From positions 194,683-258,682 of the forward strand of contig JAZDMI010000021.1 of NCBI GenBank assembly GCA_043801155.1: a DNA stretch of 64,000 bases, written 5' to 3'. Under the pieces are notes generated by a model. That model searched no databases, was not told the origin of the DNA, and saw only the letters and a list, made by a program, of their open reading frames with translations. The stretch's first letter is position 1. Each line of letters starts with the position of its first letter. The stretch comes from Candidatus Gottesmanbacteria bacterium (lineage in GTDB: Bacteria; Patescibacteriota; Microgenomatia; JAMCYU01). The translations under genes were made by a program, and so were the position numbers. Shown here piece by piece: positions 2,281 to 51,339 of this stretch.

Positions 2281-3573
2281 ATGGTAATTTCAGTTATCGG
2301 TCATGGATATGTAGGTTTAGTAACAGCGGCAGTGTTTGCCGATTTAGGCAATACAATTTGGTGTGTTGGGAGAACAAAAGAGAAAATCGATTTGTTAAAA
2401 AAAGGAGCGATGCCTTTTTTTGAACCGGGTCTTACTGAATTAGTAGCTAAAAATATCGCTGCGGGGAGATTAAAATTTACCTTATCGTACAAGGACGCTA
2501 TCCCGTCATCTAACGTAATATTTATTTGCGTTGGTACGCCTTCCCTAGATAACGGAGAAGCTGATTTATCTCAAGTTTTTGCTGCGGCCAAAAGCATTGC
2601 CGAGAACTTAGTTGATGGAAAAACAATTGTTGTCAAAAGTACAGTCCCGGTAGGAACAACAAAAGAAGTAGCTAAAATTATTAATGACAATAAACCGAAA
2701 AAAGTTAATTTTGAAATAGCCTTTGTTCCGGAATTTTTAAGAGAAGGAAGTGCTCTTGACGATACTCTTCATCCTGACAGAATTGTTCTAGGTATGGAAT
2801 CGACTAATGCTCTCAAAGTTCTACTCAAGCTTCACAAACCAATCGACGGTCAATTCGTAATAACAAATATTCCATCAGCGGAAATTATAAAGTATGCGGC
2901 TAACTCACTTTTAGCCACTAAAATTTCTTTCAGTAATAATATTGCTTTTCTCTGTGAAAAAGTTGGCGCCGATGTTGAAAAAGTATTAGACGGGGTAGGT
3001 TTAGATAAACGATTGGGACGAAATTTCCTCTATCCGGGAGTTGGATATGGGGGAAGCTGTTTCCCCAAAGACGTTAAAGCATTAATTTCGACCTTGAACA
3101 AATATGAACTCCCAGCTAAGCTTTTTGAAGCCGTCGAAGAAGTTAATAAAATGGCGGCTGATAATTTTATTAATAAAATCACTGAGGTTTTAGGAAACAA
3201 TTTGACCGGTAAAACAATTGGAGTCTTAGGTCTTTCATTTAAACCAAATACTGACGATATGCGTGAAGCTCCCTCAATCAAAATTATTACTGCTTTGCAA
3301 CGAAAAGGAGCTAAAATCCGGGCTTTTGACCCGGTAGCGATGCCAAAAACCCAAGAAATTTTTAAAGATATTACTTATTGTAAAAATTCGGAAGATGTTT
3401 CCAGAGGCGCAGACGCATTATTAATTGTTACTGAATGGAATGATTTTAAACAACTCAATCTGGCAAAGATTAAAAAATTAATGAAAAGAGCGGTAATTAT
3501 TGATGGTCGAAATATATACAACCGCGCCGAGGTAGAAAAACTAGGATTTATATACCAAGGAGTTGGTAAATAA
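2281..3573 (+). CDS. ugd: UDP-glucose 6-dehydrogenase (nucleotide-sugar dehydrogenase family)
   Basis: N-terminal VIGHGYVGLVTAAVFADLGN dinucleotide fold, catalytic cysteine motif GGSCFPKDV, C-terminal UDP-binding domain, 430 aa. Confidence 0.8.
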   Translation: MVISVIGHGYVGLVTAAVFADLGNTIWCVGRTKEKIDLLKKGAMPFFEPGLTELVAKNIAAGRLKFTLSYKDAIPSSNVIFICVGTPSLDNGEADLSQVFAAAKSIAENLVDGKTIVVKSTVPVGTTKEVAKIINDNKPKKVNFEIAFVPEFLREGSALDDTLHPDRIVLGMESTNALKVLLKLHKPIDGQFVITNIPSAEIIKYAANSLLATKISFSNNIAFLCEKVGADVEKVLDGVGLDKRLGRNFLYPGVGYGGSCFPKDVKALISTLNKYELPAKLFEAVEEVNKMAADNFINKITEVLGNNLTGKTIGVLGLSFKPNTDDMREAPSIKIITALQRKGAKIRAFDPVAMPKTQEIFKDITYCKNSEDVSRGADALLIVTEWNDFKQLNLAKIKKLMKRAVIIDGRNIYNRAEVEKLGFIYQGVGK

Positions 3574-3579
3574 CATTTT

Positions 3580-3606
3580 CCCTAGCCTAAAAATCTAGGG
3601 TTTTTC
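3580..3606 (+). terminator. Putative intrinsic terminator after ugd
   Basis: CCCTAG-(9 nt loop)-CTAGGG hairpin immediately followed by TTTTT, 7 nt after the ugd stop codon. Confidence 0.5.
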
Positions 3607-3645
3607 AAACCTTTAAAGGAAAATGTTTAAACTGCTTCAATTCAT

Positions 3646-3665
3646 CCGCGCAATGAATTGCGCGG
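3646..3665. promoter_or_regulatory. Perfect 9-bp inverted repeat (CCGCGCAAT-GA-ATTGCGCGG), candidate operator upstream of the rmd-like gene
   Basis: GC-rich palindrome in an otherwise AT-rich 137-bp intergenic region. The flanks (CTTCAA ... TTGAAG) extend the symmetry. No following T-tract, so it is unlikely to be a terminator. TTGAAG and TATAAT-like hexamers and an AGGAGG RBS follow, before the ATG at 3711. Confidence 0.35.
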
Positions 3666-3710
3666 TATTCTTGAAGCATTATATAAAAATATTGATTATA
3701 ATCAGGAGGA

Positions 3711-4670
3711 ATGATGGTTAAGAAAGCACTGATAACGGGTATTACTGGTTTCGCCGGTAGTCATTTAGCCGAATTATTACTTAAAGAAGGTATTGAGGTC
3801 TATGGGACGACGAGACCACGAAGTAAAACAGACAATATCGATCTGATTAAAAATAAACTAAAACTTCAGGATGCCGATATAATGGATTCTCATAGTTTAT
3901 ATTCTGTATTTGTTGAGGTAAAACCTGATTATATTTTCCATTTAGCCGCTCAATCGTTTGTCCAGACCTCATGGGCTTCCCCAGCAACGACTATGGAGAT
4001 GAACGTTGTCGGTAGTGTTCATTTATTTGAAGCTATTAGAAGAGCCCAAATAAATCCGGTAATTCAAATTGCTTGTTCGTCAGAAGAATATGGATTAGTC
4101 TATCCTAACGAACTACCGATCAAAGAAGATAATCCTTTACGGCCTCAATCTCCATATGCTGTTTCTAAAGTAGCGATGGACTATTTGGGATATCAATATT
4201 GGCAAAGTTATAAAATGAGAATTATCAGAACGAGGGGTTTTAATCATACAGGACCGAGGAGAGGCGAAGTATTTGTTACCAGTAATTTTGCTAAACAAAT
4301 TGCCGAAATTGAAAAAAAGAAAAAAGAGCCGGTAATTGAAGTAGGAAATTTAGAAGCACAGAGAGACTGGACAGATGTTCGTGATATGGTGAGTGCATAT
4401 TTAATGGCAGTTGAAAAAGGGAAAGCCGGCGAAGTTTATAATATTTGCTCAGGTCAGACGATTAAAGTCAAAGATGTTCTTGATATGTTGTTAGCGATGA
4501 GTAAGGTTAAGGTTAAGATTAAACAAGATCCGGCCAGACTCCGGCCATCAGATGTGACGATTCTTTTAGGAGATAACAGTAAATTTCGGAAAGCAACGGG
4601 TTGGAAACCGAAGATTCCTTTTAAAAAGACCATGGAAGACCTTCTCAATTATTGGCGAGAAAGAGTCTAA
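3711..4670 (+). CDS. rmd: GDP-mannose 4,6-dehydratase-family short-chain dehydrogenase/reductase, most like GDP-4-dehydro-6-deoxy-D-mannose reductase (Rmd, makes GDP-D-rhamnose)
   Basis: ITGITGFAGSHLAE Rossmann motif, YAVSKVAMD (YxxxK), NHTGPRRGEVFVTSNFAKQIAEIE and GNLEAQRDWTDVRDMV blocks shared by GMD and Rmd. Length 319 aa without the GMD C-terminal extension favours Rmd. No gmd in the window. Confidence 0.55.
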   Translation: MMVKKALITGITGFAGSHLAELLLKEGIEVYGTTRPRSKTDNIDLIKNKLKLQDADIMDSHSLYSVFVEVKPDYIFHLAAQSFVQTSWASPATTMEMNVVGSVHLFEAIRRAQINPVIQIACSSEEYGLVYPNELPIKEDNPLRPQSPYAVSKVAMDYLGYQYWQSYKMRIIRTRGFNHTGPRRGEVFVTSNFAKQIAEIEKKKKEPVIEVGNLEAQRDWTDVRDMVSAYLMAVEKGKAGEVYNICSGQTIKVKDVLDMLLAMSKVKVKIKQDPARLRPSDVTILLGDNSKFRKATGWKPKIPFKKTMEDLLNYWRERV

Positions 4671-4688
4671 TTTCTTATCAAATGTCAA

Positions 4689-5648
4689 ATGTCAAACACG
4701 AAATATCTAATAGTTGGTGGAGCGGGATTTATCGGATCGCATCTTTGTGATGAACTTCTCAATAGGGGCGATGAGGTTTTTTGTATTGATAATTTTATTA
4801 CCGGAAATAAAAAAAACATCGAACACCTTATTAAAAACTCATCATTTCATCTTATCGAATGGGATATTACTAAAACATTAGATAAAAATCTTCAATCTCA
4901 AATATCTACTGTTCAGTTTATTTATCATTTAGCCTCGCCTGCCAGCCCGATACAGTATCAAAGATTCCCGATTGAAACTTTATTAGCCAACTCACTGGGA
5001 ACATACAATCTTTTAATGTTGGCTAAAGAAATTAATGCCAGATTTTTATATGCTTCCTCCAGCGAAATCTATGGTGATCCGTTACAACATCCTCAAAAAG
5101 AGCCATATTGGGGTAATGTCAATCCGATTGGTATTCGTTCTTGTTATGATGAAGGGAAAAGATTCGGTGAAGCGATTATAATGGCGTTTATTCGCAAGTT
5201 TGATCTTGATTGCCGGCTGGCAAGGATTTTTAATACTTATGGACCGAGAATGGAAAAAGAAGATGGTCGTGTTGTCTCTAATTTTATTGTCCAGGCATTG
5301 TTAGGCAAACCAATTACGGTGTATGGTGATGGTAGTCAAACAAGAAGCTTTTGTTTTGTATCTGATATGGTTGCGGGTTTAATGAAATTAATGGAAGAAG
5401 AAAAAGCTCGAGGAGAAGTTTTTAACTTGGGTAATCCTGAAGAATACACGATCCTAGAAATTGCGAGGAAAATTAAGGACCGAACCGCGTCTGTATCGGA
5501 AATAAAATTTAATGATTTACCAGAAGATGATCCTGTCCGGCGCCAACCGGATATTACTCGGGCTAAGCAGATTTTAGGATGGCAGCCGATCATTAGTATT
5601 GATCAGGGTCTTGGTCAAACGATTAAGTATTTTGAATCTATTTTATGA
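4689..5648 (+). CDS. uxs: UDP-glucuronate decarboxylase (UDP-xylose synthase, UXS/ArnA-decarboxylase family)
   Basis: VGGAGFIGSHLCDELL Rossmann motif and the UXS hallmark SCYDEGKRFGEA (catalytic YxxxK within YDEGKR), about 320 aa. Located downstream of ugd, which supplies UDP-GlcA. Confidence 0.75.
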   Translation: MSNTKYLIVGGAGFIGSHLCDELLNRGDEVFCIDNFITGNKKNIEHLIKNSSFHLIEWDITKTLDKNLQSQISTVQFIYHLASPASPIQYQRFPIETLLANSLGTYNLLMLAKEINARFLYASSSEIYGDPLQHPQKEPYWGNVNPIGIRSCYDEGKRFGEAIIMAFIRKFDLDCRLARIFNTYGPRMEKEDGRVVSNFIVQALLGKPITVYGDGSQTRSFCFVSDMVAGLMKLMEEEKARGEVFNLGNPEEYTILEIARKIKDRTASVSEIKFNDLPEDDPVRRQPDITRAKQILGWQPIISIDQGLGQTIKYFESIL

Positions 5649-6772
5649 AAGTTGTTATAATTTTACCTACTTATAATGAGAAAGGGAACATTAAACTTCT
5701 CATTGAGCAAATCGAAAAGATTTTTGATCGGATAAATAATTATTCATTTGATATTTTAGTTGTCGATGATTCATCTCCTGATGGGACAGCCTCGGAAGTT
5801 TCAATTGTTCAGAATACATATAAGAACGTTTATCTCTTGGTAAATAAAAAGAAAATCGGTTTAGGTAAAGCATTATTAGTTGGTATGGACTATGCTATCC
5901 AAAAATTGCACGCAGAAGTTCTTCTTGAAATGGATGCTGATTTATCTCATGATCCGAAAAAAATTCCGGAATTTCTTGAAAAAATTGACAAAGGTGCAGA
6001 TTTTGTTATCGGTAGTCGTTATATTAAAGGTGGTTCGATTCCGGAGCGGTGGGGAATTCACCGAAAACTTTTTAGCCGGATTGGTAATATACTGGTTAGG
6101 AGCATTTTGGGAATTTTCCGAATTCATGAATGGACCAGTGGTTTTAGAGCCGTAAGAAGTCGTTTTTTTGAAGACTCTAAAAATGATTTATCTGATTTTA
6201 GCGGCTATACTTTTCAAGTTGCCTTTCTTTATAAAAGTCTTATGAGAGGAGCTAAAATTGTCGAGGTCCCGATTAATTTTTCGGAACGATATTACGGCCG
6301 TTCTAAACTTGCCCCATTAGAATATATATCTAATTTACTTTTTTATCTTATAACTACCCGACTCAATGAATTATGGAAGAATGGATTTATAAAATTTTGT
6401 ATTGTCGGAACAATCGGTTTTTTGGTCAATCTAGTCGGTTTGGAATTCTTTTTCAATTTAGGTGTAAGACCAGGTCCGGCTGCTGCATTAGGAGCAGAAA
6501 TAGCCATTGTGTCGAATTTCTTGTTTAATAATTTTTGGACTTTTTCTGGCGAAAAAATAGTAACAATAACAAGATTAATTATGAAATTTATTCAATTTAA
6601 TGTAACCTCTGCAGGAGCGGTGCTTATACAAGGAATAGTCGTTGGATTAGGAACTCATATTTATGGGGATGAATCACGGCGAATTTTTTTAGTTCTGGCG
6701 ATTATTTTTTTCATTATTCCCTACAGCTGGTTTATCTATAACCGAATTATTTGGAAAACTCATGGAAAATGA
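5645..6772 (+). CDS. GT2 polyprenyl-phosphate glycosyltransferase (Dpm1/GtrB/ArnC-like) fused to a C-terminal GtrA-like 4-TM flippase domain
   Basis: N-terminal VVIILPTYNEKGNI...VVDDSSPDGT (GT2 DxD region), EMDADLSHDP, GSRY. The C-terminal 120 aa (FIKFCIVGTIGFLVNLVGLEFFF...) match GtrA-family topology. ATGA overlap with uxs. Confidence 0.7.
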   Translation: MKVVIILPTYNEKGNIKLLIEQIEKIFDRINNYSFDILVVDDSSPDGTASEVSIVQNTYKNVYLLVNKKKIGLGKALLVGMDYAIQKLHAEVLLEMDADLSHDPKKIPEFLEKIDKGADFVIGSRYIKGGSIPERWGIHRKLFSRIGNILVRSILGIFRIHEWTSGFRAVRSRFFEDSKNDLSDFSGYTFQVAFLYKSLMRGAKIVEVPINFSERYYGRSKLAPLEYISNLLFYLITTRLNELWKNGFIKFCIVGTIGFLVNLVGLEFFFNLGVRPGPAAALGAEIAIVSNFLFNNFWTFSGEKIVTITRLIMKFIQFNVTSAGAVLIQGIVVGLGTHIYGDESRRIFLVLAIIFFIIPYSWFIYNRIIWKTHGK

Positions 6773-8309
6773 AACGAATAATAATAAATTTAGAATTAAA
6801 AAGTTAATTCCTCTGATAGTCTTCTTAGGTATTTTTTTACTGGCTTCGGTTATTCGTTTATACAGGATTGCTGACTATATGACTTTTTTAGGTGATGAGG
6901 GCAGGGATGTTTTAGTTGTTAAACGGATGATTGTTGACCATAAACTTACTTTGTTAGGACCGACTGCGTCTGTCGGAGGATTTTTCTTAGGCCCGATATA
7001 TTACTATTTTATGCTGCCTTTTTTATGGCTTTTTCAACTGGATCCTGTTGGACCAGCAGTCATGGTGGCTCTTTTTGGGATTGCGACAGTTGTTTTAATT
7101 TATAAAGTCGGTAAAGATATGTTTAATACTAAAACCGGACTTACCGCTTCTATATTATACTCAATTTCACCACTGGTCATCGCCTATTCACGCTCGTCAT
7201 GGAATCCAAATCTGGTACCTTTTTTTTCGTTAGCTTTTATATATAGTTTATGGTTAACCGTGTGTGGCAAATGGCATTATTTATTTTTAACAGGCGTAAT
7301 TTTTGGTATTGGATTACAGCTTCACTACCTGTTTGCTTTTCTCCTGCCAATGGCTATAATTCTTTTTCTGATATATGGACGAAACCTGAAAAAGATTAAA
7401 TACTACCTATTGGGACTACTGGGATTTATTGTTGGATATTCACCTTTTTTAGCTTTTGAGTTTCGTCATGGATTCCCTAATACGCAAACCGTACTAAAAT
7501 TTATTTTTTCGGCAAAAGATACCGGATTCACCGGTGCAAAATTTACCTCAATTATTCAAGATGTGACATTCAGACTTTTTGGCAGACTGGTTGATAATTA
7601 TCCTGACCCGGGATGGTTAGCCAATATGCCAAAAAACGAACAGAGTTTTTATTGGATTCTTACGATTATTACCATAACTATTTCTCTAGGAACCTTATTA
7701 ATTAAATTGGTAAGAACCAAAGATAAATCTTATGTTCTTTTATTTTTATGGTTTTTAAGCGGAATTCTGCTCTTTGGTTTTTATAAGAAAGCAATTTATG
7801 ATTATTATTTAGGCTTTATGTTTACCCTACCATTTTTATTGGTTGGATCAGCTTTTTCCTTTTGGTTGCACAGAAAAAATACAATCATTAAATTGGCGAC
7901 CATTTCTATATTATGTTTAATTTTATGGGTTAATTGGGAAGGAAGGCCATTCAGATCTCCTCCTAATCGGCAGCTGGCACAAACTAAAGAAATCTCTCGT
8001 TTTGTATTAAATAAAACTGGCGGTAAGCCCTTCAATTTTGCCTTAGTGACCGGACAAAATTCTGATCATGCCTACCGATATTTTTTTGAAATCTGGGGGA
8101 ACAAGCCGACAACAATTGAGAATCCGGTAATAGATCCAAATAGAAAATCAGTTACACCACAGTTATTAGTTATTTGTGAAAACATAACGTGTCAACCCCT
8201 AGGAAATTCACTTTGGGAAATTGCTGGTTTCGGCCGAGCCGAAATCGAAGGTGAATGGGATGTCTCAGTAGTTAAAGTTTTCAAACTTGGACGTTATAAA
8301 GGGATTTGA
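6762..8309 (+). CDS. Polytopic membrane glycosyltransferase, GT-C superfamily ('family C' paralog 1)
   Basis: About 12 predicted TM helices. First-loop motif RLYRIADYMTFLGDEGRDVLVVKRMI, shared with ORFs 39842-41290(-), 51948-53426 and 55110-56672. It ends the ugd-uxs-GT2 module as ArnT does in Arn operons. Confidence 0.55.
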   Translation: MENETNNNKFRIKKLIPLIVFLGIFLLASVIRLYRIADYMTFLGDEGRDVLVVKRMIVDHKLTLLGPTASVGGFFLGPIYYYFMLPFLWLFQLDPVGPAVMVALFGIATVVLIYKVGKDMFNTKTGLTASILYSISPLVIAYSRSSWNPNLVPFFSLAFIYSLWLTVCGKWHYLFLTGVIFGIGLQLHYLFAFLLPMAIILFLIYGRNLKKIKYYLLGLLGFIVGYSPFLAFEFRHGFPNTQTVLKFIFSAKDTGFTGAKFTSIIQDVTFRLFGRLVDNYPDPGWLANMPKNEQSFYWILTIITITISLGTLLIKLVRTKDKSYVLLFLWFLSGILLFGFYKKAIYDYYLGFMFTLPFLLVGSAFSFWLHRKNTIIKLATISILCLILWVNWEGRPFRSPPNRQLAQTKEISRFVLNKTGGKPFNFALVTGQNSDHAYRYFFEIWGNKPTTIENPVIDPNRKSVTPQLLVICENITCQPLGNSLWEIAGFGRAEIEGEWDVSVVKVFKLGRYKGI

Positions 8310-8404: not shown

Positions 8405-9322
8405 ATGGATGTCCCCATTTTAGAGGTCAAAAACCTCACTAAAAAGTTTGCTGGTTTTACTGCAGTTGACGATATTTCCTTTGAGATTAAGGAAGGGGAG
8501 ATACTGGGTTTATTGGGGCCGAACGGTGCTGGTAAAACAACCACGATCGATATTCTTTTAAGCTTAACAAAACCGACAAGCGGAGAAATTCGGATATTTA
8601 ACCTTGATTTTGTAAAGTACAGAGAAACGATTCTCAAAATGATGAATTTTTCGGCTGCTTATATCAGTTTGCCGGCAAGATTAAAGGTGTTTGAAAATTT
8701 ATATACCTTTGCCAGACTTTATGAAGTACCGAATTATAGAAACAAGGTTGACCAACTACTTACAGAATTTCAGCTGATTGGTTTAAAAAATAAAATAACC
8801 ATGGATTTATCATCGGGCCAATTAGCCAGACTTTGTATTTGTAAGGCTTTTATAAATAATCCCAGATTACTTCTCCTTGATGAACCGACTGTTTACCTAG
8901 ATCCTGATATTGCTGATTTCACCAGGAAATATATTACTAAAAAAGTAAAAGAGGAACGGATGACAGTCCTTTTTACTTCTCATAATATGGCCGAAGTGAC
9001 AGAGCTATGCGACAGGGTTATATTTTTAAATAAAGGAAAAATAATCGCCCAAGATACCCCGGAAATGCTGGCAAAAAAAATTAAGTCTTGTCGGGTAAGG
9101 CTCCTATTTGACAATACCAAAGATAAAGCCTTGACACTTCTTAAAAATTATTTATATAACTTTTGGGAAGACGGAAAGGAAATAATTATTGAACTTAATG
9201 AAGAAAATATCGGTCAACTCTTGGGTAGGTTGTCTTTAGCCAAAATAAAATATTATCAAATTACTATCGAAAAACCAACGCTAGAGGACTTTTTCTTAAA
9301 GATCTCGAGAGAGTTTGTATGA
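8405..9322 (+). CDS. ABC transporter ATP-binding protein (ABC-2 / TagH-Wzt-like exporter ATPase)
   Basis: Walker A GPNGAGKTT, signature LSSGQ, Walker B LLLDEPT, H-loop TSHNM. Confidence 0.85.
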   Translation: MDVPILEVKNLTKKFAGFTAVDDISFEIKEGEILGLLGPNGAGKTTTIDILLSLTKPTSGEIRIFNLDFVKYRETILKMMNFSAAYISLPARLKVFENLYTFARLYEVPNYRNKVDQLLTEFQLIGLKNKITMDLSSGQLARLCICKAFINNPRLLLLDEPTVYLDPDIADFTRKYITKKVKEERMTVLFTSHNMAEVTELCDRVIFLNKGKIIAQDTPEMLAKKIKSCRVRLLFDNTKDKALTLLKNYLYNFWEDGKEIIIELNEENIGQLLGRLSLAKIKYYQITIEKPTLEDFFLKISREFV

Positions 9323-10110
9323 ATTTAACCAGGGTATTTGCTATTGTAATTAGACATTTATATCTATGGCCAAGAACTATCGAAAGGATGATGGGTGCCT
9401 TTGGGTGGCCAATTTTTGATCTTATCATTTGGGGATTAGTAACAACCTATATAATGAAAAGTTCAAATCTGTCATTTTCTTTAACCGGTTTTATTTTAGG
9501 CGGATTAATTCTTTGGACTATTGTTTGGCGGGTGCAAAATGATATTTCGGTAAACTTCCTCGATGAGGCCTGGAATAAAAATCTAATAAATATTTTTTCA
9601 ACACCATTAACCCCCAAAGAGTTCTTATCGGCAATGATAATATTAAGTTTAATTAAGATTTCTATGACAACTCTAAGTATTACCGTTGGCGCGTATATTT
9701 TATATCGTTTTAATTTTTTGGCAACATTTGGTTTATATATTCCCGTGTTGTTTATAAATTTATTATTGTTTGGGTGGATATATGGATTCTTAGTTAATGG
9801 TTTAATACTCCGCTACGGATATATGGTGGCTGAATTAGCCTGGGCGTTAATTGCTCTTGTCCAACCATTCGCTTGTGTTTTCTATCCATTAGCCTCGTTA
9901 CCTTTATGGGCTCAAAAAATCGGATTAATGATTCCAGTAACATATGTGTTTGAGGAAATGCGTAATATTTTATTTACCGGAAATATAAATTGGAATAACC
10001 TGTTAATTAGTTTTATTTTAAATATGATATATCTTGTATTATCCCTATGGTATTTCAGGTCAATGTTTGAGAAAGCCAGAGAATTCGGGCGTTTAGTAAA
10101 ACTAAATTAA
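9319..10110 (+). CDS. ABC-2 type transporter permease (TagG/Wzm-like)
   Basis: 263 aa, 6 predicted TM helices, ATGA-coupled to the ATPase gene; typical ABC-2 architecture. Confidence 0.7.
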   Translation: MNLTRVFAIVIRHLYLWPRTIERMMGAFGWPIFDLIIWGLVTTYIMKSSNLSFSLTGFILGGLILWTIVWRVQNDISVNFLDEAWNKNLINIFSTPLTPKEFLSAMIILSLIKISMTTLSITVGAYILYRFNFLATFGLYIPVLFINLLLFGWIYGFLVNGLILRYGYMVAELAWALIALVQPFACVFYPLASLPLWAQKIGLMIPVTYVFEEMRNILFTGNINWNNLLISFILNMIYLVLSLWYFRSMFEKAREFGRLVKLN

Positions 10111-10111
10111 T

Positions 10112-10876
10112 ATGAACAATAATAAAATCTACGTTTCTGTAATTATTCCTTGTTACAACGAGGAACAAAATATTAAAACAGGTATTCTTGATAAGGTCTA
10201 TGCTTATCTTGAGAAACAGAATTATTCCTGGGATGTAAATATTGTTGATGATGGTTCAAGTGATAATAGCGTTCGTCTGGTCGAAAAATTTATTAGTGGC
10301 CATCCCAATTTTTCATTAATCAGAAATCCTCATCAAGGAAAAGCAGCTACCGTTATTTCGGGCATGCTTCAAGCAAAGGGGAAATATGTCCTTTTTAGTG
10401 ATTTTGATCAAGCTACGCCAATTGAGGAAATCGAGAAAGTTTTACCATGGTTTGATCAAGGTTTTGATATAATAATTGGCTCTCGAAGTAGTCACCGGAA
10501 AGGAGCACCGTTATCTAGATTAATTATTGCCAGAGGATTTATGTTACTTAGGCATTTAGTATTAGGTCTTGAAGGAATTTCTGATACTCAATGCGGTTTT
10601 AAGGCTTTTAAAAATGATGTCGCCAATAAGCTATTTGGTTTTTTAAGATTATACGGAGAGAAAAAAAGTGTATCTGGCCCGCTTGTTACTGCCGGTTTTG
10701 ACATTGAACTTCTTTTTTTAGCTAAAAAATTAGGTTTTAAAATTAAAGAAGTGCCAGTTGAATGGCATTATGTTGAGACCAGAAGGGTAAATCCGGTAAA
10801 AGATTCATGGTATGGTTTTTGGGATTTAATTTTGATTCGGTTAAATGAGATCCGTGGTCTTTATGATAAAAAATAG
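10112..10876 (+). CDS. GT2 glycosyltransferase (polyprenyl-phosphate sugar synthase-like)
   Basis: VSVIIPCYNEEQNI...IVDDGSSDNS, DFDQATP, GSRS motifs of Dpm1/CsbB-type GT2. Confidence 0.7.
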   Translation: MNNNKIYVSVIIPCYNEEQNIKTGILDKVYAYLEKQNYSWDVNIVDDGSSDNSVRLVEKFISGHPNFSLIRNPHQGKAATVISGMLQAKGKYVLFSDFDQATPIEEIEKVLPWFDQGFDIIIGSRSSHRKGAPLSRLIIARGFMLLRHLVLGLEGISDTQCGFKAFKNDVANKLFGFLRLYGEKKSVSGPLVTAGFDIELLFLAKKLGFKIKEVPVEWHYVETRRVNPVKDSWYGFWDLILIRLNEIRGLYDKK

Positions 10877-12044
10877 ATTCTTATTATTTGTTATATTCTA
10901 TATATTTACCATTATTAGCCTTTTCTTTTACTCTTTTACGCAAGTAGACCTTAACTTAACCTTATCCAAATCTTCCAAAATTCAGGAACTTGAAAAAGCA
11001 TTTATCCAAATTGGATATTTTAATCGACCACTCTCAACAACTATTTTTATTATCTTAATTATTTTACTTTTTATGGCTTATTTTATTATTCTTTCGCTGG
11101 TATATAAGAAAATAATCCCACGCCGTCATATTTGGATATTGATTATAGTAACAACAATATTACTATTATTTTCGTATCCGGCATTTTCTCATGATATCTT
11201 TAATTATATGTTCTGGGCGAGGATTTTTACCCATTATGGTCTTTCTCCATATCAATTTCGCGCGCTTGATTTTCCGGCTGATACCTGGACCCGCTTTATG
11301 CATTGGACCCATACCACATATAATCACGGACCTTTATATCTTATTATTAGTTTTATTCCCTCCTTTTTGGGATTAAATAAATTTGTTTTGACACTGATGA
11401 ATTTTAAACTATTGAACATTGGTGCTTATTTGGGGAGTATCTTTTTTATTAATAAAATTACCAAAAAGATCGATAATCAACATAATTTATTAGCGGTTAG
11501 TTTTTTTGCCTTTAATCCGGTGGTGATAATTGAATCTTTAGTTAGCGCCCACAATGATATCTTAATGCTTTTCCTTGCCTTAATATCGATATATTTTTTA
11601 ATCAGCAAAAAATATATTGCCTCATTTGTATTTTTAATATTATCCGCCGGGATTAAGTTTGTGACAATTATATTTGTGCCGCTGTATATATATTTTTTAC
11701 TTAAGAAAAAGGAAGATTTTAATATGCTTTTAAAATTAACGATTGTTTTTTATTTAATCGGTTTAATCCCGTTGATTTATCAGCGGGAACCATATCCATG
11801 GTATTTTATTCCGCTAATCGGGTTTGCCAGTCTTTCTTTTAAGGATTATTTTATAAGATTAATTTTTATTGGTTTATCTTGCGGATTGTTATTAAGGTAT
11901 GCCCCATATCTATTTTTTGGTGACTATAAGCCACCAGTTCCTCTGATAACCCTTTGGCTTACCATCGCTGCCCTAGTTATCTCTATACTAGTTTGGATCA
12001 TTAGCCAACTTCATACTTTTAAGATTTTCAAAGAGGAAACATGA
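10845..12044 (+). CDS. Polytopic membrane protein, putative GT-C glycosyltransferase ('family E' paralog 1); start may be the internal ATG at 10863
   Basis: Multi-TM. Motifs FSHDIFNYMFWARIF and SAHNDILMLFLALISIYFLISKK are mirrored in ORF 58835-59959 (FSNDIFNYMATARV, SSHNDIVMMFFVLFSLLLIKK). Confidence 0.5.
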   Translation: MRSVVFMIKNRFLLFVIFYIFTIISLFFYSFTQVDLNLTLSKSSKIQELEKAFIQIGYFNRPLSTTIFIILIILLFMAYFIILSLVYKKIIPRRHIWILIIVTTILLLFSYPAFSHDIFNYMFWARIFTHYGLSPYQFRALDFPADTWTRFMHWTHTTYNHGPLYLIISFIPSFLGLNKFVLTLMNFKLLNIGAYLGSIFFINKITKKIDNQHNLLAVSFFAFNPVVIIESLVSAHNDILMLFLALISIYFLISKKYIASFVFLILSAGIKFVTIIFVPLYIYFLLKKKEDFNMLLKLTIVFYLIGLIPLIYQREPYPWYFIPLIGFASLSFKDYFIRLIFIGLSCGLLLRYAPYLFFGDYKPPVPLITLWLTIAALVISILVWIISQLHTFKIFKEET

Positions 12045-13123
12045 GGTTAAGACTCGAACTGATATTGTTGGTAATTATCCTGCTTATTAATCTTAGTTTC
12101 CGAATTTATAATTTTAGAATCGAATATCTAACAAAATTTGATCCTGTTTATTGGCAAAACCGTTATCTTCAATCACAATGGGTTGATCCTCAATCAAAGA
12201 ATTCAATCGGTGATGATGGTCTCTATGCGTACGCCGGATGGGCATATATTACTGGTCACGATCCGACGACTCTTAACGCGGAAATGCCCCCATTGGGGAA
12301 ATATATAATCGGACTTTCTATTTTAATCTTCCACAATCAGAATATATATGCTCTGACTATCGGTCTTTTATGCTTACTTTTCTTTTATAAATTAAATTTT
12401 CTTATACTAAAGAATAAACTGTGGTCTCTTATCCCGGTAGTAGTTTTTTCTTTTGAACCGTTGTTTTATCAACAATTGAGAGCGCCCTATCTTGATACTT
12501 TATATCTTCTTTTGCTGATGTTAACTTTCTTTAGTTTTTTAAAAAAGAAATTTTTCTTAACAGGTCTATTTATAGGACTAATGGCCTTGACTAAAAACTC
12601 TGCCTCTACATTTTTACTTTTGGGATTAACTTTAGTCGGGTATTTATTTATTACGGAACGTGAACAAATAATCAAATTTATTTTAAATCTGCCGGTGGCA
12701 ATAATAATATTCATTCTGGGGTACAGCCGATATTTTATATTGGGGCACAATTTAAGGGAATTTTTAGGTGTGCAAAAATGGATACTGAATTTCTATAGCA
12801 TCGGAGCAAAGGGTAGCCTGGGCATGGTTATGCCGATGTTTTTTAATCATTGGCAAACATGGTGGAATGGCGTGATTAAGATTTCTGAATGGCAAATTAC
12901 TTGGCCGGTAACGTTGGTATTCAGTATTTTGTATATAGTATTTAGTATTTTTCGACATAAGTTTGACGCAAGTTTGTTAATAGTTATTTGGCTTATTATT
13001 TTTATTTCCTTTTTAAGTTTTATTCCTGTTTGGCCGAGATATTTCTTGCTGATTTTACCATTTACTTATCTACTAACAATTAATTTGGTCAAAGAAACAG
13101 TTAGTAATATAATAAGTAGATAG
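12041..13123 (+). CDS. PMT/GT39-like membrane glycosyltransferase (short form)
   Basis: Loop motif DDGLYAYAGWAYITGHDPTTLNAEMPPLGKYIIG resembles the PMT-family D-E ... hPPLgK signature. 360 aa, multi-TM. Confidence 0.45.
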   Translation: MRLRLELILLVIILLINLSFRIYNFRIEYLTKFDPVYWQNRYLQSQWVDPQSKNSIGDDGLYAYAGWAYITGHDPTTLNAEMPPLGKYIIGLSILIFHNQNIYALTIGLLCLLFFYKLNFLILKNKLWSLIPVVVFSFEPLFYQQLRAPYLDTLYLLLLMLTFFSFLKKKFFLTGLFIGLMALTKNSASTFLLLGLTLVGYLFITEREQIIKFILNLPVAIIIFILGYSRYFILGHNLREFLGVQKWILNFYSIGAKGSLGMVMPMFFNHWQTWWNGVIKISEWQITWPVTLVFSILYIVFSIFRHKFDASLLIVIWLIIFISFLSFIPVWPRYFLLILPFTYLLTINLVKETVSNIISR

Positions 13124-13138
13124 GTACAAATAAAAGTT

Positions 13139-14620
13139 ATGCTAAAAAACCTTAAAAAAATCGAAATTATTTCCATTATTGGCATTCTAATAGTCTATTT
13201 TATCTCACGACTAATAAGTATAAATAATTTTCCCATTTTTACTGATGAGGCAATCTATCTTCGTTGGGCGCAAATTGCTAAAAACGACGCTAACTGGCGT
13301 TTTATATCTTTAACAGATGGAAAACAGCCTCTCTTTATATGGTTAACGATGATAAGTATGAGATTTATAACCGATCCAATTATTGCCGGAAGGTTTGTCT
13401 CGGTTATCGTCGGTGCATTTACTATTATTGGTTTAATTCTTTTGGGTAAGATTATTTTTGAAAAATGGGGAGTAGGTATTATAGCTGGATTAATTTATAC
13501 GATTCTTCCTTTTGCTCTGGTATATGATCGAATGGCTTTGATGGACGGACTACTTGGATGTGCAATTATTTGGGCGTTATTATTTGAGATAATCCTTGTT
13601 AAAACACTTAGATTAGATATTGCTTTAATTACTGGTGGTATTGTTGGTTTTGGTCTGTTGACAAAAACATCAGCTTTATTTGCCTTATATTTATTACCGT
13701 TTTCGTTATTATTATTTGATTGGCGAAAGCCGAGACGATTAAGAAGATTAACTATCTGGGTAGGACTTGCATTGGTAGTAATTATTATTTCGCAAATGAT
13801 GTATAGCATCTTAAGGCTTTCACCTTTTTTTCATATTATCGGCCAAAAGGATCAAACATTTATTTACAGCATTTCGCAATGGTTAACACATCCATTCAAA
13901 AATATTATTGGTAACCTAAATGGATTAATTAATTGGTTTACAATTTATCTAACTAAACCGATCGTGATTACTTTATTAGTCAGCTTGTTATGGGGTAAGA
14001 AATTTATTAAAGAAAAACTGTTACTTCTATTATGGTTTATTATTCCTTTTATGGCTTTAGCTCTTTTTGGCTTTGTCCTTTATCCCCGTTTTATTTTCTT
14101 TATGGTTATTCCATTATTAGTTCTCATCGGCTATGTAATCAATAGGCTTTTTGGCATAAGAAAATTATATGGCATATTATTACTAGTTATTTTATTTATT
14201 ATGCCTTTAATAATTGATTTAACTCTATTGGTTAAACCAACCGAAGCACAAGTTCCCCGATCTGATTCGAATCAATATTTTAATGATTGGCCTTCAGGAT
14301 GGGGAATTGAAGAAAGCATTGCTTTTTTCAAAGAAAAATCCAAAAATAATAAGATAGCCATTTATACCGAAGGAACTTTTGGGTTGCTACCTGCTGCCAT
14401 TGAGCTTTATTTAGCTGATAATCCAAATATTTATATACGGGGTATTTGGCCAGTACCGAATAAACTTCCTAATGAAATCGTCAAGATGGTTAGCAACCGA
14501 CCTACATATATTATTTTTTTCCAGAATCCACCGCCACCAGCATGGTCACTTGAAAAGGTATTAGAAATTCAAAAAGGGAAAAGTAAACGATTTAATACCG
14601 TTTATCAAATCAAACCTTAA
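13139..14620 (+). CDS. ArnT/PMT-like (GT83/GT39) lipid-carrier-dependent membrane glycosyltransferase
   Basis: First-loop FTDEAIYLRWAQIA (DExxY motif of ArnT/PMT_2) followed by GKQPLFIWL. About 12 TM helices and a C-terminal soluble domain. Confidence 0.6.
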   Translation: MLKNLKKIEIISIIGILIVYFISRLISINNFPIFTDEAIYLRWAQIAKNDANWRFISLTDGKQPLFIWLTMISMRFITDPIIAGRFVSVIVGAFTIIGLILLGKIIFEKWGVGIIAGLIYTILPFALVYDRMALMDGLLGCAIIWALLFEIILVKTLRLDIALITGGIVGFGLLTKTSALFALYLLPFSLLLFDWRKPRRLRRLTIWVGLALVVIIISQMMYSILRLSPFFHIIGQKDQTFIYSISQWLTHPFKNIIGNLNGLINWFTIYLTKPIVITLLVSLLWGKKFIKEKLLLLLWFIIPFMALALFGFVLYPRFIFFMVIPLLVLIGYVINRLFGIRKLYGILLLVILFIMPLIIDLTLLVKPTEAQVPRSDSNQYFNDWPSGWGIEESIAFFKEKSKNNKIAIYTEGTFGLLPAAIELYLADNPNIYIRGIWPVPNKLPNEIVKMVSNRPTYIIFFQNPPPPAWSLEKVLEIQKGKSKRFNTVYQIKP

Positions 14621-14622
14621 AG

Positions 14623-16980
14623 ATGATTTCCTCCTTAAAAAAAAGATGGCCAATATTATTTTTTCTCGTTTTCTTATTAATTTTCTTTCGTAAAACATTT
14701 TTTGCCGGGCTATTACCAATTCCATCTGACCTACTAGTCTCATGGTTTTTTCCTTATTCCTCAGGGGGGTTTATTGATTACAATTCCTGGACTACCCATA
14801 AAGGCTTAGTGGCCGACGATGCCGTGCGTCAACAATATCCATGGAAAACATTTAGTGCCAAGCAGTGGGAAAATGGCAATGCGCCGCTTTGGAATCCTTA
14901 TGCTTTTTCAGGTTACCCGCAGTTAGCGAATCTACAAACGGGAGCCTTTTATCCTCTAAATTTTTTATTTATTCTAATCGATCCAAAGATAGCCTGGACA
15001 ATACTAATTATGGCTCAACCACTATTGTCGTTTATTTTTATGTATCTTTTCTTGAAAACACTGCGTCTTTCTCAAATAAGTGCTGCCTTTGGCAGTCTTA
15101 TCTTTATAGGAATGACATTTGAAATGCTCTGGTTAGAACAAATGATAATTGGACATACGACTTTATGGTTACCTTTAGTTTTATTATGTATTCAAAAAGC
15201 ATCAGAGGGAAAAAAGAAATGGGCGGTTTTAGGAATCGTTGCCTTAACCATGTCTATTTTGGCTGGTTATGCCCAAACATCATTATATGTCGTTCTGATA
15301 GCCTTATCATATTTTATTTATAAATTATTTTACGTTAATAATAAAAAAGAATTTATTACTATTGGAATAGTGCTGTTTGTATTCCCACTTTTATTATCGG
15401 CAATACAATTATTACCGGTTTTTGAAATTTATAATTTTTCTGCCCGAGAGGGAGAAGCATCCCAAGCCTTATTTGGTAAATTTTTAGCTACCCCAAGACA
15501 ATTATTAACTCTATTTTCATCAGATATCTTTGGTAACGTTGCTACAAAAAATTTCTGGGGCGATCAATATACTGATTTTAACCTTTTTTTTGGCATAATA
15601 GCGTTATTAGTAATAGTGACCGGTATCAGAACAATGATAATTAGTAGATTCAATCTACGAGAATGCAAATTGTTTATTATTTTAGGATTGGTTGGTTTAG
15701 CCCTAGCGATTCCGCCGCTTGGTTTTCTTCCTCTTATTTTAAATATTCCGATACTTTCCACCGGAGTTCCGGCAAGATTTATCTTTATTTTTCAATTCTG
15801 TGCCTGTATTGTTGCAGCCTTTTGTTTTGATTGGATAATAAAGGAAAAATTAAATCGATTTTCGATTAAACCCGCGACTCTAATTTTTATTTTTATTATC
15901 TTATTATCCTTGAATTTCTTCTTTTTAGCTCGTGTTACTCCAAACATAGCCAATAAAACAAATTATCTTGTTAGTCTTCGTAATTTAGTTTTAACTATCG
16001 GTATTGCAGGTTCTGGTTTATTGGGATTATATAGTTTACGGTTTTCAAAGATAAGATATGCCGGAATGATATTTATCATCATATTGGCTGCACTAGAATA
16101 CCTCTATTTGGGAAATAAATACTTGCCATTTGCTAAAAAAGAATATTTATTTCCTGATCATGTACTTTTAACTTTTTTAAAAGAGCAACCGGGAATAGAC
16201 CGATTTTGGGGAGAAGGATCAGCAAAAATTGGCACAAATATACCTACCTACTATGGACTTTATTATCCCGAAGGTTACGATTCTCTATATATTAAGCGTT
16301 ATGGAGAGCTAGTAAATGCTGCATATGATGGTCAAATTACCAAAAAAATTCCCCGAAGTGATGTTAATATTAATGAAAAGTCTTTATATAAAGAAAGATT
16401 ACTTGACATACTAGGAGTAAAATTCATCTTAGACAAAAATGATATACCTAAATCGGAGTTTGAACCAGAAGACTGGAAGTTTACTCCGGATCGTTATAAA
16501 TTAATTTGGCAGCGTGAGAAATTTAAAGTTTATGAAAATCTTTATTCTTGGCCAAGGATCTATTTTGCCCAAGATATTATCGTTAAGGATAATGATCAGG
16601 AGATAATTAATGAAATTTATAAAAGTAAGGGAAAAAATATTGCCGTAATAGAAAAACCATTAGAGGAAAATTTTAAACCCGATAATCTGGGTAAAATAAA
16701 CCTACTCAAATATTCTCCAAATAAAATTATTATAAATAGCCAATCTCAGGAGCAAGGATTTTTAGTCATATCTGATAATTACTTTCCCGGGTGGGAAGCC
16801 TATATCGATAATCAAAAGACAACTATTTATCGGACAAATTATACTTTTCGTGGTATCAGTGTTCCTGCCGGAGATCATCAAATCATATTTTCTTATAATC
16901 CATTTTCTTTTCGTTTGGGATTTGTTATTTCATTAATTAGCTTATTTGGGATTATAGCAATTTACTTTATCGTCTTATGA
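14623..16980 (+). CDS. YfhO-family membrane glycosyltransferase (GT-C)
   Basis: 785 aa. N-terminal YfhO signature YPWKTF...NGNAPLWNPYAFSGYPQLANLQTGAFYPLNFLF. C-terminal YFPGWEAYIDNQKTTIY...AGDHQIIFSYNP module. Confidence 0.75.
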   Translation: MISSLKKRWPILFFLVFLLIFFRKTFFAGLLPIPSDLLVSWFFPYSSGGFIDYNSWTTHKGLVADDAVRQQYPWKTFSAKQWENGNAPLWNPYAFSGYPQLANLQTGAFYPLNFLFILIDPKIAWTILIMAQPLLSFIFMYLFLKTLRLSQISAAFGSLIFIGMTFEMLWLEQMIIGHTTLWLPLVLLCIQKASEGKKKWAVLGIVALTMSILAGYAQTSLYVVLIALSYFIYKLFYVNNKKEFITIGIVLFVFPLLLSAIQLLPVFEIYNFSAREGEASQALFGKFLATPRQLLTLFSSDIFGNVATKNFWGDQYTDFNLFFGIIALLVIVTGIRTMIISRFNLRECKLFIILGLVGLALAIPPLGFLPLILNIPILSTGVPARFIFIFQFCACIVAAFCFDWIIKEKLNRFSIKPATLIFIFIILLSLNFFFLARVTPNIANKTNYLVSLRNLVLTIGIAGSGLLGLYSLRFSKIRYAGMIFIIILAALEYLYLGNKYLPFAKKEYLFPDHVLLTFLKEQPGIDRFWGEGSAKIGTNIPTYYGLYYPEGYDSLYIKRYGELVNAAYDGQITKKIPRSDVNINEKSLYKERLLDILGVKFILDKNDIPKSEFEPEDWKFTPDRYKLIWQREKFKVYENLYSWPRIYFAQDIIVKDNDQEIINEIYKSKGKNIAVIEKPLEENFKPDNLGKINLLKYSPNKIIINSQSQEQGFLVISDNYFPGWEAYIDNQKTTIYRTNYTFRGISVPAGDHQIIFSYNPFSFRLGFVISLISLFGIIAIYFIVL

Positions 16981-50621: not shown

Positions 50622-51335
50622 ATGTTATTATCAATAATTATTCCCGTTTATAACGAAGAAAAAACGATTGGCCAGCTTTTAAAGCTATTAAACTCAGTAA
50701 ATATTCCTTCAGTGCAAAAAGAGATTATCCTTATTGATGATGGTTCAAAAGACCGGACATCAATAGAGATTGACAAGATTAAATCCTCAATCGCCGGACT
50801 TAAAATAATTCATCACCAACAGAACTCTGGTAAAGGATCCGCGATAAGAAGCGGATGCGAGTTAGCCACAGGTAACTATATTATTGTTCAAGACGCCGAT
50901 CTTGAGTATCAACCATCAGATATCGTTCGCTTACTGGATCCGATCATCAATCACAAAGCGGAAGTAGTTTATGGTACTAGACTTAATCGTCTTCCTCATA
51001 TATTTAAAGAAGAAAGGAGTACCCTTTTTTTTCTTCATTATCTCGGTAATAGAATTTTAAGTTTATTAACAAGTATACTTTATGGTCAGTGGCTTACTGA
51101 CATGGAGACAGGTTATAAGGTATTTCCCCGGTCAGCTTTAAAGAAGATTACTCTTAAAGCAAACGGTTTTGATATTGAACCTGAGCTTACAAGTAAACTT
51201 ATAAAGGCTGGTTATCACATTCTTGAAATTCCAATTTCGGCTAATCCGCGGAATTATAAACAAGGTAAAAAATTTAATACCATAAAAGATGGATTTATGG
51301 CTTTTTGGAAGATTCTGTTATATCGGTTTACTTAA
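50622..51335 (+). CDS. GT2 glycosyltransferase (Dpm1-like polyprenyl-phosphate sugar synthase)
   Basis: LLSIIIPVYNEEKTI...LIDDGSKDRT, VQDADLEYQP, GTRL. Confidence 0.7.
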   Translation: MLLSIIIPVYNEEKTIGQLLKLLNSVNIPSVQKEIILIDDGSKDRTSIEIDKIKSSIAGLKIIHHQQNSGKGSAIRSGCELATGNYIIVQDADLEYQPSDIVRLLDPIINHKAEVVYGTRLNRLPHIFKEERSTLFFLHYLGNRILSLLTSILYGQWLTDMETGYKVFPRSALKKITLKANGFDIEPELTSKLIKAGYHILEIPISANPRNYKQGKKFNTIKDGFMAFWKILLYRFT

Positions 51336-51339
51336 GAAT

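Follow-up and report, generated by a model that had tools for sequence, protein, structure and literature searches.

A 64-kb stretch of DNA from Candidatus Gottesmanbacteria, in the Candidate Phyla Radiation (CPR), encodes near its left end a family 2 glycosyltransferase (GT2) followed by a polytopic glycosyltransferase of the GT-C class, and raises the question of which sugar these two enzymes handle. The original prediction described a dedicated module in which a UDP-xylose synthase (Uxs) supplies the pair with xylose, carried on polyprenyl phosphate. The GT2 and GT-C genes are found instead to form the stable core of a widespread locus in which uxs comes and goes, and the GT2 is most similar to a dolichyl-phosphate mannose synthase (DPMS). 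There is a somewhat better than even chance that the sugar is mannose derived from GDP-mannose, the pair then being a polyprenyl-phosphate-mannose synthase and a mannosyltransferase. Every open reading frame (ORF) of 120 aa or more in the 64-kb stretch (hereafter, the window) was screened for domains, and the interval 2281–8309 contains five of them, all on the + strand:

2281–3573, + strand: Ugd, UDP-glucose 6-dehydrogenase; three UDP-glucose/GDP-mannose dehydrogenase domains; TIGR03026, 466 bits (cutoff 190)
3711–4670, + strand: Rmd-like extended short-chain dehydrogenase/reductase (SDR), a predicted GDP-6-deoxy-4-hexulose reductase of 319 aa; PDB 2pk3, E 1.3e-94, 320 bits
4689–5648, + strand: Uxs, UDP-glucuronate decarboxylase (UDP-xylose synthase, EC 4.1.1.35); human UXS1, E 7.5e-108
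5645–6772, + strand: GT2, a type-III-DPMS-like polyprenyl-phosphate glycosyltransferase of 375 aa; Pfam Glycos_transf_2 and GtrA_DPMS_TM; closest to the Pyrococcus furiosus enzyme PfDPMS (5mlz)
6762–8309, + strand: GT-C glycosyltransferase of the ArnT/PMT (GT39/GT83-like) type, 515 aa; Pfam PMT_2, 55.7 bits (cutoff 26.1)

Domain, profile and UXS1 matches bear out the positions and identities first assigned to Ugd, Uxs, GT2 and GT-C, and these four genes do stand in the order proposed, although the Rmd-like gene between ugd and uxs had been omitted. The uxs, GT2 and GT-C genes are joined through overlapping stop and start codons, with an overlap of 4 nt between uxs and GT2 and of 11 nt between GT2 and GT-C. 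Translational coupling links the GT2 gene to GT-C and, in the window, uxs to the GT2 gene. The GT2 and GT-C proteins are each 100% identical to a protein of a Candidatus Gottesmanbacteria metagenome-assembled genome.

The GT2 is similar to type III dolichyl-phosphate mannose synthases

The closest relative of the GT2 with a solved structure is PfDPMS (148 bits, E 2.5e-42, residues 1–339), in a match that takes in the first three membrane helices; ArnC and GtrB score 56 and 39 bits. The GtrA_DPMS_TM domain spans residues 250–370 (51.9 bits; cutoff 26.1). The catalytic domain is 37.8% identical to that of PfDPMS, and PfDPMS and human DPM1 share 39% identity (PMC5526996). An AlphaFold model of the GT2 (pLDDT 86.6) contains a GT-A domain, interface helices, and four long helices (within residues 248–369), and its top Foldseek match is PfDPMS (E 3e-22, TM score 0.66–0.70, 30% identity), with ArnC (19–21% identity) and GtrB (16–20%) behind it. 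The GT2 also fails the ArnC equivalog model NF007986 (65.8 bits; cutoff 529). Because PfDPMS is the top match in both sequence and fold, the fusion of GT2 and GtrA-like segments corresponds to the type III DPMS architecture. The view that a flippase has been added to a GT2 is thus rejected, the four-helix membrane domain being an integral part of the type III fold. The membrane domain of type III enzymes is itself GtrA-like, and the authors of the structures suggest that it could take part in product flipping (PMC12992685).

Roles of the donor- and acceptor-site residues were taken from the PfDPMS structure paper (PMC5526996) and mapped onto the GT2 by alignment:

Guanine contacts: PfDPMS Asp39, Gly68 and Leu69; GT2 D42, G72 and L73 (motif G72-L73-G74)
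Metal and sugar: PfDPMS 89-DADLQH-94; GT2 97-DADLSH-102
Acceptor phosphate: PfDPMS Arg117, Arg131 and Ser135; GT2 R125, R140 and S144
A-loop: PfDPMS Arg202 and Lys208; GT2 R215 and K221
Gate: PfDPMS Phe177; GT2 Y188
Mannose O4/O6 contact: PfDPMS Lys178; GT2 T189 (not conserved)

Residues D97, A98, D99 and H102 are invariant among 17 homologs, and R125, R140, S144, R215 and K221 are all invariant in the homolog alignment. The DXD hexapeptide ends in the sugar-binding His in both the GT2 and DPMS, in Asp in GtrB and in Asn in ArnC; the equivalent of the guanine-contacting Asp (D42) is also present in ArnC, which uses a UDP-sugar. In the membrane domain, N262 and N291 align with PfDPMS Asn248 and Asn277 of helices 1 and 2 and are conserved in 63 and 82 of 84 homologs, respectively. 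The other polar-pocket positions of PfDPMS, the gate Phe338 and Arg/Asn341, are in helix 4, which is outside the HMMER alignment to the GT2.

One clade of GT2 homologs (L099, L101–L103, L107, L111, L115, L124, L129 and others) has correlated substitutions at positions of the catalytic site, H102W, S144H, Y126H, W163H, G166N and G123A (window numbering), and includes loci with uxs, with only ugd, or with only the Rmd-like gene upstream. These changes hint at a different sugar or mechanism, and because they alter sugar and phosphate sites, specificity may differ within the family.

With 6815 scored homologs, type-III-DPMS-like enzymes are very common in the CPR, and certain other bacteria have them as well. 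A 2026 survey using a strict motif definition places type III DPMS only in hyperthermophilic archaea (PMC12992685). A contig labelled as an uncultured Methanosarcinales archaeon (L008) encodes a full-length GT2 homolog (40% identity) after two Rmd/GMD-like SDRs, reflecting either lateral transfer or a binning error.

The GT-C glycosyltransferase

The GT-C protein has no sequence-level match among PDB structures. Its AlphaFold model, built from a 28-sequence alignment (pLDDT 87.4, pTM 0.88), has a GT-C membrane fold, and the comparison with ArnT that had been proposed as a check gives ArnT (5f15) as the top Foldseek match (E 9.5e-8, TM score 0.63, 9–10% identity), followed by AglB/STT3/PglB, ALG12 and Pmt4. 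The first extracytoplasmic loop contains the sequence LGDEGRD (residues 43–49), in which the stretch D45-E46-G47-R48-D49 is the same in all 28 homologs. In source databases the family carries the label GT39 (NCBI) or "ArnT family". The predicted structure confirms the ArnT/oligosaccharyltransferase/ALG/PMT fold class and carries no information on the sugar.

Conservation of the locus

Related loci were collected in two scans, and the window proteins were then mapped onto them. The first scan, with a full-length GT2 alignment, returned mostly homologs of the catalytic domain only and about 12 full-length ones, and the second, with an alignment of the membrane domain, returned 80 useful metagenome loci. 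A full-length GT2 with its membrane domain is encoded in 84 loci, including the window. These loci share a fixed gene order: (rmlA, rmlC), rmlB, rmlD-like, ugd, (gmd), rmd-like, (uxs), GT2 and GT-C, with the bracketed genes variably present by locus. The GT-C gene is followed by a second GT2 (GT2b), an MptA_B/GT87-like protein, an unknown protein, and a PMT_2 GT-C.

The gene directly before GT2 is uxs in 29 of the 68 loci with a neighbour scored (at least 1.1 kb upstream), the Rmd-like gene in 16, ugd in six and another gene in 17; of the 64 loci extending 1.8 kb or more downstream, 39 have a GT-C ortholog directly after GT2. Since uxs and GT-C take these positions so often, the uxs-GT2-GT-C arrangement is not a chance juxtaposition. 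The conserved pairing and the identities of its two members also support the general proposal that a polyprenyl-phosphate glycosyltransferase feeds a GT-C enzyme, as in the Arn pathway.

The presence of uxs is variable. Among the 73 loci that extend at least 1.1 kb upstream of GT2, 34 have uxs and 39 do not (11 others are too short to score), and the 48 loci that reach 4 kb or more upstream contain ugd in 37 cases, making it the most constant sugar-nucleotide partner, the Rmd-like gene in 27, uxs in 24, and none of the three in 11. A GT-C ortholog is present within 10 kb in 26 loci with uxs and in 18 without. Loci with and without uxs are intermixed in a neighbour-joining tree of the GT2s, and the sister clades of the window (L002, L003 and L158; L081, L089, L090, L116 and L135) have no uxs and have the Rmd-like gene directly before GT2. 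Close GT2 relatives differ in uxs presence, including the pairs L126/L134 (90.2% identical; L126 has uxs and L134 does not), L140/L132 (76.9%) and L152/L149 (72.8%). No donor-site residue of the GT2 separates loci with uxs from those without, and the best discriminating residues are peripheral or follow phylogeny. A gene family exclusive to uxs-containing loci, as a candidate xylosyltransferase might be, was not found within 10 kb beyond clusters of three loci. The GT2 and GT-C genes thus form the stable core, and because uxs-containing and uxs-lacking loci interleave, near-identical GT2 proteins differ and neither a donor-site residue nor a neighbouring gene family tracks uxs, uxs is the last and optional gene of the block and is not co-inherited with the GT2/GT-C pair. 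A dedicated uxs-GT2-GT-C module for xylose, as first envisaged, does not fit this distribution.

Predicted function of the GT2/GT-C pair

The interval would represent the leading part of a conserved locus for cell-envelope glycosylation in CPR bacteria of the Microgenomates type. Its activated sugars would include the dTDP-rhamnose branch (RmlB and the RmlD-like reductase), UDP-glucuronate (Ugd), a GDP-6-deoxyhexose (the Rmd-like enzyme) and UDP-xylose (Uxs). From the architecture of the GT2 and its conserved pairing with the GT-C we infer a direction of flow and a topology in two steps. The GT2 would first move one sugar from its nucleotide to polyprenyl phosphate at the cytoplasmic membrane face, with the GtrA-like four-helix domain anchoring the enzyme and perhaps aiding the product in crossing; the ArnT/PMT-like GT-C would then pass the sugar to a protein or glycopolymer acceptor outside the membrane.

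Several observations favour mannose as that sugar. Both the nearest relative that has been characterised and the conservation at the donor site indicate a GDP-mannose enzyme, and among the GT2s of the window this is the sole DPMS-type one to carry a membrane domain. The GT-C types of the surrounding region (PMT, PMT_2, PIG-V and MptA_B-like), where characterised, use dolichyl- or polyprenyl-phosphate mannose. The pair is independent of uxs, and since 11 of the 48 loci have the GT2 with none of ugd, rmd and uxs nearby, a housekeeping donor is implied. GDP-mannose must exist in the lineage, because gmd (in related loci) and rmd are present. UDP-xylose, where it is made, would go to other transferases of the region.

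Other points weigh against mannose. The sugar specificity of GT2 polyprenyl-phosphate transferases is not reliably readable from sequence, and the PfDPMS lysine that contacts mannose O4 and O6 is replaced in the GT2. The gap between uxs and GT2 is 0–25 nt in most of the 28 loci in which it is measurable, and such tight coupling would be the look of a dedicated supply gene; similarly, the near constancy of ugd, together with an overlap of its stop codon with the GT2 start in one clade, hints at a sugar derived from UDP-glucuronate. A GDP-mannose pyrophosphorylase gene was not seen in any locus, and the additional conserved neighbours (RmlA-like, RmlC-like, TrmD and more GT-Cs) were judged by motif reading rather than family search. 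The counts of uxs refer to the 10-kb flanks of metagenome loci that are phylogenetically non-independent.

UDP-xylose synthase and the xylose alternative

Uxs aligns with human UXS1 over residues 5–317 (364 bits), with GalE-like proteins next at 142 bits and ArnA at about 88 bits. The alignment includes conserved SSSE, YDEGKR, RIFNTxGPRM, DGRVVSNF and QTRxF segments, and the NAD-binding, Ser/Thr-x-Glu and YxxxK motifs GGAGFIGSH, ASSSEIYG and CYDEGKR correspond to human GGAGFVGSH, ASTSEVYG and CYDEGKR. Assignment of 4689–5648 as a UDP-xylose synthase, with a predicted activity of UDP-glucuronate to UDP-xylose, is robust, and the whole-length alignment with UXS1 disposes of the alternative that this gene encodes a dTDP- or GDP-sugar 4,6-dehydratase.

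With Ugd and Uxs together providing UDP-xylose, the GT2 could load xylose and the GT-C transfer it outside the membrane, in a pathway resembling Arn without its amino and formyl steps. The robust assignment of Uxs and the overlap of its stop codon with the GT2 start are in keeping with this, as are the placement of uxs, which directly precedes GT2 in 29 of 68 loci and was never encountered at another position in the 10-kb flanks, and the presence of ugd in all 24 of 24 loci with uxs. GT-C follows GT2 in 21 of 26 loci with uxs compared to 12 of 29 without, and the best structural match of the GT-C is ArnT. However, those 12 uxs-less loci, among the ones read far enough downstream, retain the GT-C, and 39 of the 73 scorable loci, the sister clades of the window among them, have an intact GT2 and no uxs. 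The presence of uxs differs between GT2 relatives at 90%, 77% and 73% identity, and no donor-site residue tracks it. Because uxs is the last gene of a block with an unvarying order (rmlB, rmlD, ugd, gmd, rmd, uxs), its adjacency to GT2 carries little extra information. The GT2 is also DPMS-like and not ArnC-like (66 bits against an equivalog cutoff of 529), and other GT2s of the region could use UDP-xylose. Xylose as the carried sugar is therefore unlikely, contrary to the original prediction, with uxs facultative and interleaved in the tree and the GT2 nearest to the GDP-mannose-dependent PfDPMS; the reading stays alive because the coupling of uxs to GT2 is tight and uxs was scored in the locus flanks alone. 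A version restricted to the CPR lineages in which uxs fronts the pair, where the DPMS-like GT2 would take UDP-xylose (alone or beside GDP-mannose) to form polyprenyl-phosphate xylopyranose for transfer by the GT-C to an envelope acceptor, appears similarly improbable.

The Rmd-like reductase and GDP-6-deoxyhexoses

The Rmd-like SDR matches the GDP-6-deoxy-D-lyxo-4-hexulose reductase Rmd (2pk3) at 320 bits compared to 144–169 bits for structures of GDP-mannose 4,6-dehydratase (GMD). Its orthologs (67–77% identical) lie directly upstream of GT2 in loci without uxs. Despite the presence of this reductase, there is no GMD gene in the 64-kb window. In Levybacteria-type loci a second SDR beside the Rmd-like gene (L001, 8071–9009) is a true GMD, with 384 bits to 2z1m. 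The Rmd-like enzyme of the window retains an S-S-E-E motif and so may be bifunctional, or gmd may be elsewhere in the genome. The gene is preceded by the only sizeable gap in the interval, of 137 nt after ugd, which contains the following element:

3646–3665, + strand: terminator-like GC-rich hairpin CCGCGCAATGAATTGCGCGG (pattern match only)

The hairpin has an 8-pair stem with six G-C pairs, in surroundings of 35% G+C, and may act as a terminator or mark a transcript boundary between ugd and the rmd-uxs-GT2-GT-C run.

The position of the Rmd-like gene behind this hairpin, in a tight run with uxs, GT2 and GT-C (3711–8309), raises the alternative that the GT2 loads a GDP-6-deoxyhexose of the D-rhamnose or 6-deoxy-talose type for the GT-C. 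The gene is directly before GT2 in 16 uxs-less loci, including the nearest clades to the window, the nucleotide pocket of the GT2 is of the GDP type, as in DPMS, and D-rhamnose is identical to mannose except at C6. The Rmd-like gene is missing, however, from 21 of the 48 loci, the dehydratase that would precede it in the pathway is not encoded in the window, and we know of no precedent for a lipid-linked donor derived from a GDP-6-deoxyhexose. This alternative is regarded as very doubtful.

Ugd and glucuronate

The constancy of ugd (37 of 48 loci) points to a further candidate, in which glucuronate or another sugar of the UDP-glucuronate/UDP-glucose pool is loaded by the GT2 onto polyprenyl phosphate; Rhizobium RgtE, which makes a galacturonate carrier, is an analog. 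The ugd stop codon overlaps the GT2 start, with neither rmd nor uxs present, in L099, L101–L103, L107, L133 and L137, and Saccharibacteria-type loci retain a trio of GT2, GT2b and ugd. Some of these loci belong to the clade with H102W and S144H, whereas the window GT2 has the canonical DPMS residues and is most similar to a GDP-sugar enzyme, and 11 loci lack ugd. A glucuronate-type donor is accordingly rated as highly unlikely for the window, and GDP-mannose remains the favoured donor.

Comparison with known systems

The type III PfDPMS (5mlz, 5mm0 and 5mm1) has the same single-chain arrangement of GT-A domain, interface helices and four-helix GtrA-like domain as the GT2 (PMC5526996, PMC12992685). 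The two share the DAD(L)xH motif, the Arg/Arg/Ser set for the acceptor phosphate, the Arg/Lys pair of the A-loop and the Asn residues of helices 1 and 2, and differ in that Gln93 and Lys178 of PfDPMS are Ser and Thr in the GT2. PfDPMS is from a hyperthermophilic archaeon and uses dolichyl phosphate, whereas the GT2 is bacterial, does not come from a hyperthermophile and presumably uses a bacterial polyprenyl phosphate.

In the actinobacterial Ppm1/Pmt system a polyprenyl-phosphate-mannose synthase acts together with a GT39 protein O-mannosyltransferase. The likeness lies in a DPM1-like GT2 making a lipid-linked single sugar for an extracytoplasmic GT-C of the PMT family; the GT-C of the window is annotated as GT39 and has the Asp-Glu motif in loop 1, and the catalytic domain of the GT2 shares about 40% identity with GT2 homologs from actinobacteria. 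It differs in that the window genes are adjacent and translationally coupled and the synthase has its own four-helix membrane domain. A Streptomyces homolog (L075) considered as a Ppm1 on the strength of an adjacent lnt gene was dropped, its neighbours being an amidohydrolase and FxsA.

The Arn pathway shares with the locus a start from Ugd-made UDP-glucuronate, a decarboxylating SDR, and a polyprenyl-phosphate GT2 followed by a GT-C. As had been noted for the aminotransferase and formyltransferase, no domains of these enzymes or of a deformylase, and no separate ArnE/F, are encoded by window ORFs of 120 aa or more. With its aminotransferase, formyltransferase and deformylase all missing from the window, the Arn pathway itself is not encoded here. 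The decarboxylase is moreover of the UXS type and not the ArnA type (364 and about 88 bits), the GT2 fails the ArnC model, and the GT-C is only 9–10% identical to ArnT. Lipid A synthesis is not known from CPR bacteria.

The three-component systems (GtrA/GtrB/Gtr*, CsbB/GtcA/YfhO and the pentofuranose system of Citrobacter youngae) follow the same logic of donor synthesis, flipping and GT-C transfer, in which a glycan is decorated after export (PMC11127046). The window likewise encodes an ABC-2 exporter and several YfhO-family proteins, although its flippase-like domain is fused to the synthase. For C. youngae O2, genetic work by Kelly et al. (2024) showed that the choice of a xylofuranose over a ribofuranose side chain depends on a C3 epimerase alone; the donor they infer is undecaprenyl-phosphate xylofuranose, originating from phosphoribosyl pyrophosphate (PRPP) via ribofuranose and the C3 epimerase, and in vitro their GT136 GT-C used synthetic farnesyl-phosphate xylofuranose as a substrate (PMC11127046). 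The claim that a lipid-linked xylose donor for a GT-C is without bacterial precedent therefore needs qualifying. That system has a PRPP origin, a MATE flippase and GT136, not UDP-xylose and a GT2, and the mycobacterial methylthioxylose cap also has a decaprenyl-phosphate donor (PMC11127046). The claim does hold for the proposed route itself, in that GT2-catalysed conversion of UDP-xylose to polyprenyl-phosphate xylopyranose was not found in the searchable literature; literature searches on the CPR and GT-C found nothing. In its working the pair resembles Ppm1/Pmt and the three-component systems, and what it has in common with Arn is just the general logic; it probably belongs, as an ordinary case, to a known type of system.

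Flanking genes and the glycosylation island

The genes to the left of ugd begin the sugar-nucleotide block:

1–323: NUDIX hydrolase fragment, a partial ORF at the window edge; Pfam E 9e-9
324–1337, + strand: rmlB, dTDP-glucose 4,6-dehydratase; TIGR01181, 480 bits (cutoff 365)
1347–2279, + strand: RmlD-like reductase, conserved in position; Pfam RmlD_sub_bind, E 8e-54

The rmlB gene is the first of the conserved block, and orthologs that are 64–74% identical have the same position in related loci. The slot before it contains the NUDIX fragment in the window and rmlA in relatives. The RmlD-like reductase scores 172 bits with TIGR01214, under the cutoff of 224.

To the right of the GT-C gene the block continues as follows:

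8405–9322 and 9319–10110, + strand: ATPase and permease of an ABC-2 type (ATP-binding cassette) exporter; Pfam ABC_tran and ABC2_membrane
10112–10876, + strand: GT2b, a GT2 without a membrane anchor, with the polyprenyl-phosphate-glycosyltransferase-like motifs QGK, DFDQ and GSR
10845–12044, + strand: polytopic protein with faint GT87/MptA_B likeness (GT87 E 0.0012, below cutoff)
12041–13123, + strand: unknown protein of the conserved tail
13139–14620, + strand: second PMT_2 GT-C, also in the conserved tail

The ABC-2 pair is also present in the close relative L161 and probably exports the glycopolymer of the same locus. GT2b is conserved just after the GT-C, with orthologs in 39 related loci both with and without uxs. 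The L161 ortholog (16490–17668) of the 10845–12044 protein is recorded with a PF26314 MptA_B_family hit, and the window protein may be a polyprenyl-phosphate-mannose-dependent mannosyltransferase. The order of the tail (10845–14620) is conserved in L002, L003, L116, L124, L129 and others.

The entire 64-kb window is one dense glycosylation island encoding about 20 polytopic GT-C-type proteins (PMT_2, PMT, YfhO, PTPS_related and PIG-V-like), about 10 short GT2s and two GT4s, with almost all genes on the + strand. Further genes include:

20943–22430 and 62667–63935: Wzx-like flippases
51289–51951: methyltransferase

GT2s without a membrane anchor at 10112, 20208 and 50622 have polyprenyl-phosphate-glycosyltransferase-like motifs and are, by those motifs, equally plausible users of UDP-xylose. 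Within the island, a PMT/PMT_2 GT-C (41312–43009) and a 482-aa protein without a family match (39842–41290) form a pair on the opposite (−) strand. A DUF5667 protein (58311–58838) is followed by two ORFs, 58835–59959 and 59641–61611, with 319 nt in common; for the second, the TTG start has probably been placed too far upstream.

Implications for the CPR cell surface

Were xylose the sugar after all, the locus would provide bacterial glycobiology with a new lipid-linked pentose donor, made by a GT2/UDP-sugar route distinct from that of PRPP-derived xylofuranose, and gain or loss of uxs would be a simple genetic switch of the surface sugar, generating surface variation. If the pair instead handles mannose, as is favoured here, it is a routine combination of mannose carrier and GT-C, and the value of the assignment lies mainly in annotation. 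The side observation most worth keeping is the abundance of type-III-DPMS-like enzymes in the CPR, set against the strictly defined archaeal-only distribution. Under the mannose assignment, thousands of CPR proteins annotated as "family 2 glycosyltransferase" would be type-III-DPMS-like, with an architecture that a recent report restricts to hyperthermophilic archaea, and these enzymes would head large GT-C islands that probably build the poorly known cell surface of CPR bacteria.

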